Source of the DNA: Macrostomum lignano
Lineage: Eukaryota
Assembly: GCA_002269645.1 (NCBI GenBank)
Contig: NIVC01001607.1
Coordinates: 186,001 to 250,000 of the forward strand
Length of the DNA: 64,000 nucleotides
Direction: 5' to 3'
Each line of letters starts with the position of its first letter. Within the stretch, counting starts at the first letter, position 1. A model generated the notes under the pieces. That model did not search any database. It was not told the origin of the DNA and saw only the letters and a list, made by a program, of their open reading frames with translations. The position numbers were made by a program, and so were the translations under genes. Shown here one piece after another: positions 14,778 to 24,663 of the stretch.

Positions 14778-15278
14778 GTCACGTGATTTAGGCTATTTAT
14801 TGGCTGAAGTCACGTGACTTAGGCTATATATCGGCTGAAGTCACGTGATTTAGGCTATTTTTTGGCTTAAGTCACGTGATTTAGGCTATTTATTGGCTGA
14901 AGTCACGTGATTTAGGCTATTTATTGGCTGAAGTCACGTGATTTAGGCTATTTTTTGGCTGAAGTCACGTGATTTAGGCTATTTATTGGCTGAAGTCACG
15001 TGACTTAGGCTATATATCGGCTGAAGTCACGTGACTTAGGCTATATATCGGCTGAAGTCACGTGATTTAGGCTATTTATTGACTGAAGTCACGTGATTTA
15101 GGCTATTTATTGGCTGAAGTCACGTGATTTAGGCTATTTATTGACTGAAGTCACGTGATTTAGGCTATTTATTGACTGAAGTCACGTGATTTAGGCTTTT
15201 TTGGCTGAAGTCACGTGATTTAGGCTATTTATTGACTGAAGTCACGTGATTTAAACTTTATTGGCTGAAGTCACGTGA
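14778..15278. repeat. Minisatellite, 31-bp unit GTCACGTGATTTAGGCTATTTATTGGCTGAA, one CACGTG E-box per unit
   Basis: About 16 tandem units. The last unit is interrupted by the giant inverted repeat. Confidence 0.95.
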
Positions 15279-18200
15279 CTACTAAGGACGCATTTATCCG
15301 GGCGTTTTGGAGGTGGGGTGGGTGTCAACCCTCCTCGCCTCTCATTGGCTGGCGCCCCGATCACTAGGTGATCGATACGCGTATCGATATCGGCGCTCGG
15401 CGCGCGCGCGCCGCAGGCGCGTGGCGCCAAGCGCCGCAGGCGCACCCTCCCGATATGTGCACCCTCCCGAGCCGCAGGCGACCCTCCAGAGCAGCAGGCG
15501 ACCCTCCAGAGCAGCAGGCGCCCATCCCGCAGGGGTACCCTCCCGATATGTATGCGCACCCTTCCGATATGTATGTCGCAGGCCCCATGCTGCAGGCGCC
15601 CCATGCCGCAAGCACCCCGAGTGTACACTCTACCGAGCCGCAGGCACCCCGAGTGTACACTCTACCGAGCCGCAGGCACCCCGAGTGTACACTCTCCCGA
15701 TATGTACACTCTACCACTCTTCCGATATGTAGTCATCGATACGGGCCTCTTCCCCTCTCTCACCTACATCTCAACTAGCGAAATCGAACCCAGGTCGCGC
15801 CCATACTAGGACACTACACGGTTGTGGGGTATAGGGAGCGAGAAGTTTCAACCCTAACGCTGACGCAGCCCTGTACAGTGAGAGTGTACGGGCAGAGAGG
15901 GGTGGCGCGGACAGAGAACCAGCCACTAGGTTGTTATACTGTTGAAGCATAGGGAGCGAGAAGTTTTAACCCCGATGCTGACGCAGCCCTGTACACTGAG
16001 CGTGTACGGGCAGAGGGTGGGTGGAAAGAGATGTGAATAACACAGCCTGCTGCAGGAGCCGGATAGAGAGGCGCATGCTAGGACAGAGAGGTAGTGTGAG
16101 TCACACACACCCCACAGAGAAAGCCATACAGAGGATAGAGAGCTCCCTCCCCAGTTGCAGGGGACAGAGAGGCAGGCAGGGTATGCAGGGGCATGCGAAC
16201 CGTCAAGGGGCCACGCGAGGATAGAGTGGAGGAGCAGAGATGTGTTTGGACAGAGAGCCAGCCACGTGTGCGTAGTGTGAGGGAACAGAAACATATGGAG
16301 CAGGAGGGAGATAGGAAGCAAACGCGCAGGGTAAGGGAGCCACACAGGGCGGTACAGTGAGACACGGGCAGGGGTGGAGCCGTGCGTGGACAGAGCTGAA
16401 CGGCACGGTCAGCTGCAGGAATAGGATGATAGAGAGGCGCGGAGGGGGACAGAGAGCAGTGTGCAGGGGTAGGCAGCCACGCAGGCTGGGGAACAGAGAG
16501 GCGCGTGTCAGCCAGTTGCAGCCCGGGACAGAGAAGTATGAAGGGGGGCCTGGGACAGAGTTCCGAGCAAGGCACAGAGGTAGGGTCCTGTAGCTATGTA
16601 TAGGCAGGGAGCCACGCGAGGGCAGGACAGGGGAGCAGACATGCAAGTTGCATGCAAGGCCAGAGAGGTGTGCGCGGAGGGAGACAGAGAGCAGTGTGTA
16701 GGGGTAGGTAACAGCAAACTTTAGTAGCGGCGCGTGCGGGGACGGAGAAACCAGTCAGAGCATACAGAGACGTTACAGAGAGGTACACAAGCAGAGACCA
16801 AAGCGAGCAGAGCACATGTGTAGGGACAGAGACGTGAGGGAGAATCGACCAAAACACGCTATGTATTTTCAAAAGTTGGTTTTAGTGCAACATGTTTAAT
16901 AGTGGGTAGTATAATAGTATGTACATAGTAGGTATAATAGTAGTAATAATAGTAAGCATATTAGCCCAAAAGGTAGACTAAAACAGGCTAAACTGTGTGT
17001 ACGCATCCTCATCACCCCACAAGCCCCCTCTCCCGCCAGACTCACTCTACCAAACCCTCCTGTATTGCTGCATGAAGGAAAATATAGTGTAAAAATACAG
17101 ATCTTAACCGTCAGACCGCTGAAATCAGGGCACACTAGAGGGGGTTTCGGGGTCTGCATGCTCTATGTAAGCTGCTTGAGGAGGTTCCAAGGGCGTTGTG
17201 AGGGTTTCCATTATGTTTTGAAAAAAAACTAGAGGCTTAAATACAACGTTTTATTCAAAAGTAGGTTATTTTAATGAAATAGCTGACACAATCATTGTCG
17301 AGAGTAGAAATTTTTATAAGAAACCAGGCATTTTAGCAAAAATAAACCTTCAAACCACATAAAATTGAATAAAAAGCAGACATTTTCAATTATAAACCGC
17401 AAGTATTTTAATAGAAAAGTAAGCAAACAAGGCACAAAACCAGCAAATTTTACCTTTTTATTTTAATGTTACTGATAAGGTAGAGAGTAGAAACTTGTGA
17501 GCTGTACGGAGTTAGAAAGTATTAACCATTATGTATCGTATGAATTATTAGTTCAGTACCAGCCATTGGTCAAGCGAGCATTTATGAAGTTATTACGAGT
17601 GATGAAGGGATAGAGAGCTATATACAGGAAGACAGTATCCTTCTAAACCACCACGAACAGATTGCTAATAGAGATAAGCTTTGTCTGTGTGCAGTATGAG
17701 TAAGCGAAGGCGGGGCAAATACTTTTCCACATGCCGGACAGAACAGTATTGTGCTAGGATTTCTCTCGAAATCGCGGTACGTTACTAGTTTTTATCACAC
17801 CATCCAGATGCGTCAACTAGTCAGCAGTAGTAATTTATATGTTATTAGAACTTACAAACCCAGGTCAAGTAAATATTACAAAGAGTATATTACGTACACA
17901 CACCAACTACGAATACCAAGCCATACTAGTCTACTTGCAGTGCTCCTGGAGGGAAGGGACGGCGGGGTGTACATCCGGCAGGGTGGGCGTCCAGCGAGTG
18001 TACATCTGACAGGATGGGTGTTCAGCAAGTGTACATCTGACAGGGTGGGCGTTCAGCAAGTGTACCTTCAGCGTCGAGTAGGTGTACACCCGTCAGTGGG
18101 AACTCAGCCCCTCCCACCAATGTCGTGTGCATGCGGTTAGTCAGTATAGTGGTGGGGTAGACGGTGCAGGAAGGAAACCCAGATGCTGACGCTGCCCTGT

Positions 18201-23100: not shown

Positions 23101-24663
23101 TCTCTGTCCCTACACATGTGCTCTGCTCGCTTTGGTCTCTGCTTGTGTACCTCTCTGTAACGTCTCTGTATGCTCTGACTGGTTTCTCCGTCCCCGCACG
23201 CGCCGCTACTAAAGTTTGCTGTTACCTACCCCTACACACTGCTCTCTGTCTCCCTCCGCGCACACCTCTCTGGCCTTGCATGCAACTTGCATGTCTGCTC
23301 CCCTGTCCTGCCCTCGCGTGGCTCCCTGCCTATACATAGCTACAGGACCCTACCTCTGTGCCTTGCTCGGAACTCTGTCCCAGGCCCCCCTTCATACTTC
23401 TCTGTCCCGGGCTGCAACTGGCTGACACGCGCCTCTCTGTTCCCCAGCCTGCGTGGCTGCCTACCCCTGCACACTGCTCTCTGTCCCCCTCCGCGCCTCT
23501 CTATCATCCTATTCCTGCAGCTGACCGTGCCGTTCAGCTCTGTCCACGCACGGCTCCACCCCTGCCCGTGTCTCACTGTACCGCCCTGTGTGGCTCCCTT
23601 ACCCTGCGCGTTTGCTTCCTATCTCCCTCCTGCTCCATATGTTTCTGTTCCCTCACACTACGCACACGTGGCTGGCTCTCTGTCCAAACACATCTCTGCT
23701 CCTCCACTCTATCCTCGCGTGGCCCCTTGACGGTTCGCATGCCCCTGCATACCCTGCCTGCCTCTCTGTCCCCTGCAACTGGGGAGGGAGCTCTCTATCC
23801 TCTGTATGGCTTTCTCTGTGGGGTGTGTGTGACTCACACTACCTCTCTGTCCTAGCATGCGCCTCTCTATCCGGCTCCTGCAGCAGGCTGTGTTATTCAC
23901 ATCTCTTTCCACCCACCCTCTGCCCGTACACGCTCAGTGTACAGGGCTGCGTCAGCATCGGGGTTAAAACTTCTCGCTCCCTATGCTTCAACAGTATAAC
24001 AACCTAGTGGCTGGTTCTCTGTCCGCGCCACCCCTCTCTGCCCGTACACTCTCACTGTACAGGGCTGCGTCAGCGTTAGGGTTGAAACTTCTCGCTCCCT
24101 ATACCCCACAACCGTGTAGTGTCCTAGTATGGGCGCGACCTGGGTTCGATTTCGCTAGTTGAGATGTAGGTGAGAGAGGGGAAGAGGCCCGTATCGATGA
24201 CTACATATCGGAAGAGTGGTAGAGTGTACATATCGGGAGAGTGTACACTCGGGGTGCCTGCGGCTCGGTAGAGTGTACACTCGGGGTGCCTGCGGCTCGG
24301 TAGAGTGTACACTCGGGGTGCTTGCGGCATGGGGCGCCTGCAGCATGGGGGCCTGCGACATACATATCGGAAGGGTGCGCATACATATCGGGAGGGTACC
24401 CCTGCGGGATGGGCGCCTGCTGCTCTGGAGGGTCGCCTGCTGCTCTGGAGGGTCGCCTGCGGCTCGGGAGGGTGCACATATCGGGAGGGTGCGCCTGCGG
24501 CGCTTGGCGCCACGCGCCTGCGGCGCGCGCGCGCCGAGCGCCGATATCGATACGCGTATCGATCACCTAGTGATCGGGGCGCCAGCCAATGAGAGGCGAG
24601 GAGGGTTGACACCCACCCCACCTCCAAAACGCCCGGATAAATGCGTCCTTAGTAGTCACGTGA
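15271..24663. mobile_element. Giant fold-back element: ~4.6-kb inverted arms (15271-19868 and 20061-24663) around a 192-bp spacer, no recognisable coding capacity
   Basis: ORF track is mirrored (e.g. 15926-16345 minus / 23588-24007 plus; 19045-19419 plus / 20514-20888 minus; coordinate sums 39933). The ends read tcacgtgactactaaggacgcat ... atgcgtccttagtagtcacgtga. The right flank resumes the E-box repeat phase (cacgtgattagg). The inverted repeat is certain; its mobile nature is inferred. Confidence 0.85.
19858..20071. other. Palindrome centre: two direct copies of a 93-bp self-complementary unit (19858-19950, 19979-20071) separated by CAGAA(AC)n
   Basis: Each unit starts ctcaggcgtat and ends atacgcctgag. 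Internal complementary segments are listed in the findings. Confidence 0.9.

Follow-up and report, generated by a model that had tools for sequence, protein, structure and literature searches.

The 64,000-nucleotide stretch of Macrostomum lignano DNA analyzed here (the window) carries an intact housekeeping gene, CCDC25, both exons of which are identical to the M. lignano UniRef protein P0001. A long palindrome lies upstream of this gene (Table 1). Self-BLAST returned one long inverted match at 15271-24663, and a comparable long inverted repeat was found nowhere else in the 64-kb window. A sequence-only reading had described the same span as an insertion upstream of CCDC25, and the position agrees with ours: the right octamer ends 72 bp before the start of CCDC25. 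The inverted match covers the whole of the span, but its outer 8 bp on each side are TCACGTGA and are better read as duplicated target.

Table 1. Features of the palindrome, its flanks, and the adjacent gene (window coordinates)
Feature	Position	Strand	Description
Left flank, 31-bp minisatellite	14776..15270	+	16 units before the junction; TRF period 31, 16.4 copies
Left octamer TCACGTGA	15271..15278		Presumed target-site duplication
Left arm	15279..19868	+	4590 bp, non-coding
GC-rich subterminal module	15355..15780	+	18- and 16-bp perfect palindromes; 46-nt hairpin at ~15391-15436
Purine-rich module	15820..16850	+	12 of the arm's 15 ACAGAGA motifs; partly re-used at 18140-18420
Degenerate internal duplication	17858..18519	+	17858-17962 versus 18419-18519, 82%
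31-bp array, three units	17967-18065	+	Inside 17858..18519
ACAAAC/(AC)n microsatellite	19801..19857	+	Inner end of left arm
Central imperfect hairpin, copy 1	19858..19950		93 bp: 11-bp perfect stem ends, 71-bp imperfect core
Linker	19951..19978	+	28 bp: variant ACAAAC unit and shorter (AC)n; second 121-bp unit starts
Central imperfect hairpin, copy 2	19979..20071		Identical to copy 1, same orientation; minus-strand C(GCA)G triloop
Right arm	20061..24655	-	4595 bp, reverse complement of left arm
Right octamer TCACGTGA	24656..24663		Presumed target-site duplication
Right flank	24664..24735	+	Starts like a degenerate further array unit, then CCDC25 leader
CCDC25	24736..25647	+	Exons 24736-24930 and 25213-25647, intact; NFACT-R_1 on both exons

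Alignment of the two arms gave 4586 identical columns out of 4595 (99.8%), with four substitution and five gap columns, which bears out the earlier description of near-identical mirrored arms of ~4.6 kb. Only three substitutions lie outside the microsatellite (A/G at 17303, A/G at 17316, and A/C at 17832). A homopolymer also differs by an indel of one base (15582/24351), and the microsatellite beside the centre differs between the arms in its number of ACAAAC units (4 versus 3) and in its final (AC)n (17 versus 22). Every difference that had been noted by eye (the A/C, the two A/G, the extra base, and the 4 versus 3 ACAAAC units) was recovered by the alignment. The plus strand of the left arm is A-rich (1378 A versus 922 T in 15279-19800). 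Arm sequence had no match elsewhere in the 64-kb window beyond the microsatellite, and a scan of the window found the terminal 13-mer as an exact match only at the two element ends, with 9 near-matches versus 11 expected.

The asymmetric centre (19869-20060) has the 192-bp length reported before. It consists of a 121-bp tandem duplication in which the same 93-bp imperfect hairpin occurs twice in direct orientation, a structure that the earlier reading had missed. The duplication is exact apart from the microsatellite. Folding of the hairpin core was stronger than in shuffled sequences on the plus strand (z = -3.2, reached in 2 of 1000 shuffles) and less so on the minus strand (z = -1.6, 63 of 1000). 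A 27-nt pattern from the centre had no exact match in the GTDB genomes.

The arms have a modular build: they contain repeated motifs with a strand bias, internal duplications, and six subterminal mini-hairpins. These C(GNA)G mini-hairpins all lie in the first 500 bp of the arm, where 300 shuffles gave a mean of 0.3 and a maximum of 3. ACAGAGA is present in 15 copies per arm on one strand only, while the most frequent 7-mer in each of 300 local shuffles had at most 9 copies. The GC-rich subterminal module contains GCCGCAGGC five times, CCGATATG five times, and GAGTGTACACTC three times, and is a candidate binding region for a transposase or replication protein. Tandem repeats detected by TRF make up 441 of the 4590 bp of the arm (about 10%).

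No credible protein is encoded in the palindrome. This had been stated for either strand and was borne out by Pfam searches and shuffle tests of the ORFs. At E 0.1, the Pfam search covered 57 of the 59 arm ORFs of at least 45 aa; 55 had no match, and the matches of the other two (E = 0.037 to 0.079) were far below the cut-off. The length of the longest ORF (183 aa) was reached in 147 of 300 local shuffles. A phmmer search with this ORF against 1.84 billion proteins produced two weak matches (24 to 36%), summed over the repeats of long repetitive proteins, which were rejected. A 132-aa ORF matched none of 305 candidates at E 1, which is weak evidence as the candidates were longer proteins only. 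In a codon-frame test, 20 arm ORFs scored between -0.13 and 0.12 and seven host exons between 0.12 and 0.51; the test does not discriminate against transposon-type coding, because two of three transposon ORFs were also near 0. Rfam gave no match at gathering score in the whole window, nine sub-threshold matches in 14700-20200 were discarded as hairpin look-alikes, and a tRNA search found none. The element had no DNA match among plasmid and phage sequences. A search of the supplementary files of PMC12801592 for five short arm motifs found none of them, but this carries little weight since these files hold only six LTR families. No description of the element was found in the literature searched, a set that did not extend to Repbase and Dfam entries, subscription papers, or the 2015 and 2017 genome papers.

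The minisatellite on the left is presumed to be the host target region. Each of its units carries TCACGTGA and some carry ATTGG, which we take to be E-box-like and CCAAT-like, respectively. The self-complementary octamer TCACGTGA sits exactly at both arm ends, another feature that had been missed, and the maximal flanking direct repeat is 10 bp, comprising the octamer and 2 bases to its left. In an anchored alignment of the right flank to the array, the score was reached by 98 of 5000 random 30-mers from the window and by 195 of 5000 shuffles. The score of the element's own start against the array was reached by 1473 of 5000 random 30-mers, and the idea that the element end derives from the flanking array was therefore rejected. 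Because the right flank, and not the element start, continues the array, the flanks look like halves of one host site. Together, the duplicated octamer and the array-like right flank point to an insertion with target duplication (formally 0 to 10 bp) rather than a read chimera.

We consider it unlikely that the palindrome is an assembly or library artefact, either through fold-back reads in the contig or through a collapsed or mis-joined middle in a real long-TIR element, which would make the centre and the near-identity of the arms wrong. M. lignano is a neopolyploid whose genome is rich in repeats, and its assemblies are fragmented and redundant (PMC10733133, PMC12801592). Fold-back reads make up ~0.55 to 0.6% of ONT genomic reads, and AC repeats, which are abundant in the palindrome centre, are among the commonest sequences between fold-back halves in a human cell-line set (PMC12870357). 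An artefact would also fit the exactness of the 121-bp duplication, and polishing can raise the apparent likeness of the arms. However, a fold-back read returns into its own flank, whereas here the flanks differ, leading to the array on one side and to CCDC25 on the other, and match as the two parts of a single host site whose octamer is duplicated. Furthermore, there are three arm substitutions, where copies from one molecule should differ mainly by indels, and the centre is structured, non-adapter sequence with no plasmid match. Fold-backs are nearly absent from PacBio HiFi reads (PMC12870357).

The same flanks bear on a non-mobile local rearrangement, in which a 4.6-kb piece of ordinary intergenic DNA separating the array from CCDC25 would have gained an inverted copy when the template was switched, first at the central hairpin and then at the palindromic octamer. 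Interrupted palindromes do arise by template switching at short inverted repeats (PMC10766186), and where the boundary is self-complementary, an apparent target-site duplication (TSD) follows of itself. Animals can retain inverted repeats that are long, near-perfect, and separated by short spacers, as in Caenorhabditis elegans (2.2-kb arms, 126-bp spacer; PMC1803023). Such a rearrangement nevertheless requires that a second octamer and an array-like tail already lay beside CCDC25, 4.6 kb from the array, an arrangement that insertion predicts. The motif make-up of the arm, with its mini-hairpins and one-strand ACAGAGA, also differs from the AT-rich intergenic DNA around it. We therefore regard a local origin as quite improbable.

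The TSD can be read as 0, 2, 4, 6, or 8 bp with perfect TIRs or as 9 to 10 bp with ragged ends. Because the target is self-complementary and several lengths fit, no superfamily is assignable from the TSD. The 6-bp reading gives AC..GT termini and the 8-bp reading gives 5′-CTAC termini.

On balance, we lean toward a foldback-type DNA transposon that is non-autonomous and owes its arms to recent fold-back copying from the central hairpin. A young or homogenized fold-back mobile element had been proposed before, and at this one locus the proposal is supported by the duplicated target, the array-like right flank, the modular repetitive arms, and the small number of substitutions; the element is presumably mobile, as judged from a single site. 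Long TIRs form most of the element (arms of 4590 and 4595 bp around a 192-bp centre), as is typical of the foldback class, and they are modular with internal repeats, although tandem arrays are a minor part. Foldback TSDs measure 7 to 10 bp; an 8- to 10-bp direct repeat is present here, and self-complementarity allows 0 to 8 bp equally. Points that count against a foldback transposon include the following: the share of tandem repeats is less than in typical foldback outer domains, the 4.6-kb arms are far beyond the TIRs in the literature compared, and, to our knowledge, the 5′-CT termini of the 8-bp reading fit none of the hAT, P, and MuDR terminal consensuses. One copy was compared, and a transposase with the palindrome's ends was not found in the arms.

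The earlier suggestion that the palindrome represents an undescribed system was not sustained. Non-coding middles, TIRs of up to 1735 bp, and 8- to 10-bp TSDs have been reported for foldback elements (PMC4079207), and in non-autonomous Galileo the TIRs were extended when internal sequence was copied in inverted orientation (PMC3573991). The palindrome stands out by its size, by how closely its arms agree, and by the hairpin duplicated at its centre. TIR lengths in the systems compared were 14 to 500 bp for MULEs (PMC6446971), 870 bp, up to ~1.26 kb for Galileo, and 1.7 kb for Tetris, and the arms are 2.6 to 3.7 times as long as the longest foldback TIRs in this literature. According to PMC4079207 and PMC3169594, Tetris of Drosophila virilis, Drosophila FB, and Tm1 of Meloidogyne share long modular repetitive TIRs, a non-coding middle, and the lack of a transposase with the palindrome, and their 8- to 10-bp target duplication is a possible reading of its flanks. 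They differ in arm length (at most 1.7 kb versus 4.6 kb) and, for Tm1, in arm identity (mean of 93% versus 99.8%), whereas the palindrome is only ~10% tandem repeat, has a duplicated hairpin as its middle, and is known here from a single locus. Galileo 2T/2RT copies, of the P superfamily, likewise consist of two TIRs only, with inverted internal copying, 7- to 8-bp TSDs, and palindromic targets (PMC3573991, PMC4168063). By description, Galileo differs in its shorter TIRs and AT-rich target. Galileo termini are CA, which is not seen in the palindrome.

Elements of the MULE/Muta1 type resemble the palindrome in their long TIRs and subterminal repeats, and they have an 8- to 10-bp TSD (PMC5499845). 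The MULE TSD range is 8 to 11 bp (PMC6446971), and 8, 9, and 10 bp are all possible readings here; MULE TIRs are shorter, and the palindrome has no linked transposase. MULE-like proteins are encoded in the M. lignano genome, one of them 17 kb from the element. No MULE DDE transposase was found in the arms; the nearby MULE-like ORF (41926-45147) lies between 67-bp inverted ends unlike those of the palindrome, and this element was rejected as its partner. The terminal bases of the palindrome differ from what we take to be the MuDR termini. An 8-bp TSD is a possible reading, and the 5′-CTAC termini that it gives are presumably also unlike the hAT and P consensuses.

If the palindrome is a foldback transposon, it would have entered the minisatellite on the promoter side of M. 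lignano CCDC25, at the self-complementary octamer, through a transposase acting in trans that recognized the two identical ends via the repeated subterminal motifs. A MULE-, P-, or hAT-type DDE enzyme would be most likely because of the 8- to 10-bp target duplication. TSDs are 8 to 10 bp for MULEs and 8 bp for hAT elements, with subterminal repeats aiding transposase binding (PMC5499845), and Zisupton has an 8-bp TSD (PMC12730594). DDE transposases favour palindromic targets (PMC4168063). The arms may have originated when a parent single strand folded back at an internal GC-rich hairpin and primed the copying of one whole end, which replaced the other end; arm-to-arm conversion could be an alternative source of their likeness. 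A later 121-bp direct duplication would have extended the central asymmetry from 71 to 192 bp, and the longer centre should reduce cruciform formation. The palindrome may have formed before or after insertion.

The central hairpin also fits an integrated palindromic form of an extrachromosomal linear replicon, a reading with a small chance of being correct. On one route, an end of a protein-primed (Polinton/Maverick-like) element would have given a copy-back derivative, which an integrase then inserted, duplicating 6 bp. On the other, a hairpin-ended (dog-bone) molecule would have formed a circular inverted dimer, which opened and recombined with host DNA across the 10 bp common to both. Each round of replication would rebuild arm from arm, which would keep the arms identical and leave the loop imperfect. 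The centre is itself an end-to-end imperfect hairpin (self-complementarity score reached in 18 of 2000 shuffles), as at hairpin ends; such an imperfect palindrome is expected at a dimer junction, but the 93-bp hairpin is present twice, in the same orientation and not as flip and flop. An integrated dimer of hairpin-ended linear DNA had been proposed earlier; the imperfect central hairpin agrees with it, but none of the tests favoured a dimer over a transposon. In ODIRA dog-bone dimers, a short imperfect inverted repeat links the two inverted arms and the centre lengthens secondarily, and the path from dog-bone to circular inverted dimer to integration has been described (PMC10766186). ODIRA products return to the locus they came from and form triplications there, whereas the palindrome arm has no third copy in the window. 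Palindromic copy-back derivatives occur in yeast linear plasmids and phi29.

A 10-bp maximal direct repeat is what a crossover would leave, although the 2 bp beyond the octamer have a 1-in-16 chance of occurring at random. The 6- and 8-bp readings both begin with a period-3 repeat, which resembles the ends of protein-primed replicons, yet such a start is found at 1.9% of window positions and there were several readings to pick from. Like Polintons/Mavericks and copy-back derivatives of protein-primed replicons, the palindrome is bounded by TIRs, has a short end repeat, and formally allows a 6-bp duplication. The AC..GT termini of the 6-bp reading differ from AG..CT, which we take to be the Polinton termini. 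No coding match to pPolB, integrase, ATPase, protease, or capsid was found in the arms, so the palindrome falls outside the Polinton definition given in PMC6431247. Fragments of a polymerase, an integrase, a Rep, or a capsid were not found in the arm; a gene-free end of 4.6 kb would be long for such a replicon, and there was no phage or plasmid match. Homology between the centre and the outer hairpin was considered and rejected as weak: the score was reached in 0 of 500 base shuffles and 7 of 1000 dinucleotide shuffles, yet 4 of 242 window tiles scored higher.

A retro-type origin would give the hairpin centre, the equal arms, and the palindromic target in one step. A target-primed cDNA of a non-coding RNA would fold at its own end hairpin and be copied back through the target overhang, and could be rejoined only at a self-complementary target. 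The strand skew of the arm is strong and uniform, in keeping with this route. However, no reverse transcriptase, ribozyme, or RNA family was found in the arm, a scan with one hammerhead-core pattern was empty, and the outer ends have no poly(A) or tail. Palindromic targets are also favoured by DDE transposases (PMC4168063), and we consider a retro-type origin very improbable.

Palindromes of such length and identity with a spacer of <200 bp are unstable wherever tested and rare in genomes (PMC10766186, PMC1803023). One that occurs naturally, and was apparently inserted, in a transgenic-ready animal model would allow the origin of giant TIRs, the stabilization of their centres, and their persistence over generations to be studied; a one-off event or an assembly error would be of little importance. 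It is doubtful, though conceivable, that the palindrome belongs to a family of gene-less palindromic elements whose multiplying form is a 4.7-kb molecule, one arm capped by the imperfect hairpin, from which the second arm is made anew in each round. The extended form would then be integrated by the enzymes of a helper at self-complementary promoter targets of the CACGTG type. Such a family would be a natural animal counterpart of copy-back/dog-bone replicons and not a cut-and-paste foldback element, and copies that replicate via a hairpin form would be a new kind of mobile DNA.

At the locus itself, read-through transcription would produce a hairpin RNA of 4.6 kb, with a possible effect on the host gene. 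CCDC25 is parted from the E-box/CCAAT-like array by 9.4 kb and is offered the GC-rich, CCAAT-bearing end of the element instead: the outer end of the right arm provides a CCAAT at 24586 that faces CCDC25.

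Self-comparison of the window returned a single long inverted match, at 15271-24663. When the left arm of the palindrome was aligned with the reverse complement of the right arm, 4586 of 4595 columns were identical. The arms differ by three substitutions (A/G at 17303, A/G at 17316, and A/C at 17832), a one-base homopolymer indel (15582/24351), and an inner microsatellite with 4 versus 3 ACAAAC units and final AC runs of 17 versus 22. This alignment recovered all of the arm differences that the sequence-only reading had picked out by eye (the A/C, both A/G changes, the indel, and the ACAAAC count), and the asymmetric centre measured 192 bp, as that reading had put it. 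With three substitutions in about 4.5 kb, the arms appear to be either recent or held alike by conversion, which has been proposed for C. elegans inverted repeats (PMC1803023).

Principal features of the palindrome and its surroundings (window positions)
Feature	Position	Strand	Details
Minisatellite	14776-15278		upstream of CCDC25
Left arm	15279-19868
Outer hairpin	about 15391-15436		46 nt, in subterminal block of left arm
Central hairpins	19858-19950 and 19979-20071		identical, 93 bp each, same orientation
Microsatellite separating central hairpins			28 bp
Right arm	20061-24655
CCDC25	ATG 24736	+	72 bp from element; NFACT-R_1 on both exons
Small element	28026-28530		14-bp imperfect inverted ends
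Array in small element	28186-28397		21 bp x10
18.4-kb stretch	35447-53896		67-bp inverted repeats at ends, 1 mismatch; internal 12-bp repeats
Mariner-type element	38005-39327		34-bp inverted ends
MULE-like ORF	41926-45147		1073 aa; D, D, CxxH, E motifs with MULE-type spacing; repeat-rich tail
Reverse transcriptase fragment	45602-46282	-	LTR-retrotransposon; weak RVT_1 match
Probable SINE	56178-56480		decayed body copy 600 bp upstream, about 55500-55720
23-bp array	57158-60021

Being self-complementary, the octamer TCACGTGA, which abuts the outer end of both arms, prolongs the palindrome and is a direct repeat as well; the direct repeat at the arm ends is at most 10 bp. On the left, the flank consists of 16 units of a 31-bp array, each with the octamer. 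The right flank starts like a further, degenerate unit of this array, in an alignment that 98 of 5000 random 30-mers from the window match, as do 195 of 5000 shuffles; the first 30 bases of the element itself do no better than chance (1473/5000). The two flanks therefore look like halves of one host site. This is moderate evidence, from one site (p about 0.02-0.04), that the palindrome is an insertion; a non-mobile local duplication seems improbable to us. An assembly or read artefact is unlikely but has to be considered: fold-back reads do occur, often with AC repeats between their halves (PMC12870357), but they re-enter the same flank, whereas the flanks here differ yet fit together. If there is an artefact, an erroneous centre is more probable than an element that is false throughout.

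Target-site duplications (TSDs) and termini are the Repbase basis for classifying non-autonomous elements (PMC4455052). Duplications of 0, 2, 4, 6, or 8 bp all give perfect inverted ends here and those of 9 or 10 bp give ragged ones, so that, with several lengths permitted by the octamer's symmetry, the junction does not specify a superfamily. The minisatellite upstream of CCDC25, which the insertion separates from that gene, is an amplified unit of two motifs that we take to be E-box-like and CCAAT-like.

The reading that we favor, with modest confidence, is a non-autonomous foldback-type transposon. Foldback elements are described as having long modular TIRs, a noncoding middle, and 8- to 10-bp TSDs (PMC4079207, PMC3169594), with independent origins in the MULE, P, and mariner groups (PMC3169594). 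The arms are modular, with a GC-rich subterminal block that contains 18- and 16-bp palindromes, a 46-nt hairpin, and repeated 8- to 12-bp motifs. C(GNA)G mini-hairpins, whose loops are known for their stability, occur six times in the arm's first 500 bp (mean of 0.3 and maximum of 3 in 300 shuffles). ACAGAGA is present in 15 copies per arm, all on the same strand, while the top 7-mer in 300 local shuffles reached at most 9. Degenerate duplications of 35-105 bp lie within the arm, and tandem arrays make up just 441 of its 4590 bp, in keeping with the earlier impression that classic foldbacks are more openly tandem than this element. In Muta1, subterminal repeats increase transposase binding (PMC5499845). 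The array of the small element downstream bears the mini-hairpin motif GCCGCAGGC (minus strand), also found in the palindrome's subterminal block; beyond this motif, no likeness between the two elements was found. The small element is possibly a MITE.

A direct duplication of 121 bp makes up the spacer and carries the two central hairpins. End-to-end folding of the hairpins' 71-bp core was matched by 2 of 1000 shuffles on the plus strand and, less clearly, by 63 of 1000 on the minus strand; core self-complementarity exceeded that of 1982 of 2000 shuffles. Before duplication the element would have been a single continuous hairpin with a bulged tip, and the duplication would have widened the asymmetric stretch from 71 to 192 bp. 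Palindromes gain stability from longer spacers and from asymmetry at the centre (PMC10766186, PMC1803023). The core and the outer hairpin have a C(GCA)G loop and about 20 bases in common; we do not claim homology, because 4 of 242 window tiles score higher.

Foldback TIRs grow when internal sequence is copied in inverted form, and they do so most in non-autonomous copies (PMC3573991). Here, a single strand may have bent back on itself at the central hairpin and primed the copying of an entire end; the palindrome may have moved as such or have arisen after insertion. Copy-back replication is exemplified by yeast plasmids and phi29, and an integrated copy-back or dog-bone dimer would best account for the imperfect tip and equal arms. 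Dog-bone dimers are on record (PMC10766186), but the central hairpins share one orientation, the terminal hints are weak, and replicon genes are absent from the element by comparison with the Polinton gene set as described in PMC6431247 and bioRxiv 10.1101/2022.07.12.499685. We give such a dimer a low probability.

The element contains 59 ORFs of at least 45 aa. Of the 57 searched against Pfam, two gave sub-cut-off matches (E 0.037-0.079) and the other 55 gave none at E 0.1. The longest ORF, 183 aa, was equalled in length in 147 of 300 local shuffles; phmmer gave it two matches, both weak and summed over protein repeats. A 132-aa ORF had no match in a protein search, a weak test, and nothing above threshold came from the Rfam, tRNA, phage, plasmid, and GTDB searches. 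The codon test is powerless for transposon ORFs. With no credible match, the element appears to lack coding capacity; pieces shorter than 45 aa, from a transposon gene that has decayed or is spliced, would be compatible with the searches. A retro-type fold-back we regard as very improbable.

The element looks genuine, an extreme example of a structural type already described; that it stands for a new mode of replication is a minority possibility. Its arms are 2.6 times the longest TIR given for Tetris in PMC4079207 (1735 bp), 3.7 times that given for Galileo in PMC3573991 (about 1260 bp), and far longer than the TIRs surveyed for MULEs in PMC6446971 (14-500 bp). Searches of an open-access library brought up no account of it or of a similar-sized foldback; one may exist in repeat databases, in subscription papers, or in the supplements to the M. 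lignano genome papers.

The MULE-like ORF has no Pfam match, MULE look-alikes in ESM Atlas at 0.94 (a lead), and two M. lignano relatives (99% and 40%). It lies in the 18.4-kb element, whose ends show no clear TSD and are unrelated to those of the palindrome, so it shows only that such enzymes exist in the genome. Nested in the same element are the reverse transcriptase fragment and the mariner-type element, whose DDE ORF (Transposase_1) is broken by a stop near 38430. Inspection by eye gives the probable SINE a tRNA-like head, with a body after it; ARAGORN finds no tRNA in it.

Both CCDC25 exons are identical to a Macrostomum lignano UniRef protein, the first match of exon 2, and a second window ORF matches M. 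lignano proteins at 99%. This neopolyploid species is rich in repeats, and its assemblies have been fragmented and redundant (PMC10733133, PMC12801592). Further host genes (6688-12892; 32183-33097, minus strand; about 55900-62300) encode a WD40 protein, an RsfS/MALSU1-family protein, and PIG-S, with a different minisatellite in nearly every intron. The WD40 protein is presumably WDR44-like. The 23-bp array contains a repeated, exact 1313-bp higher-order block with identical 247-codon frames at 57666 and 58979, which reflects either a recent duplication or an assembly effect.
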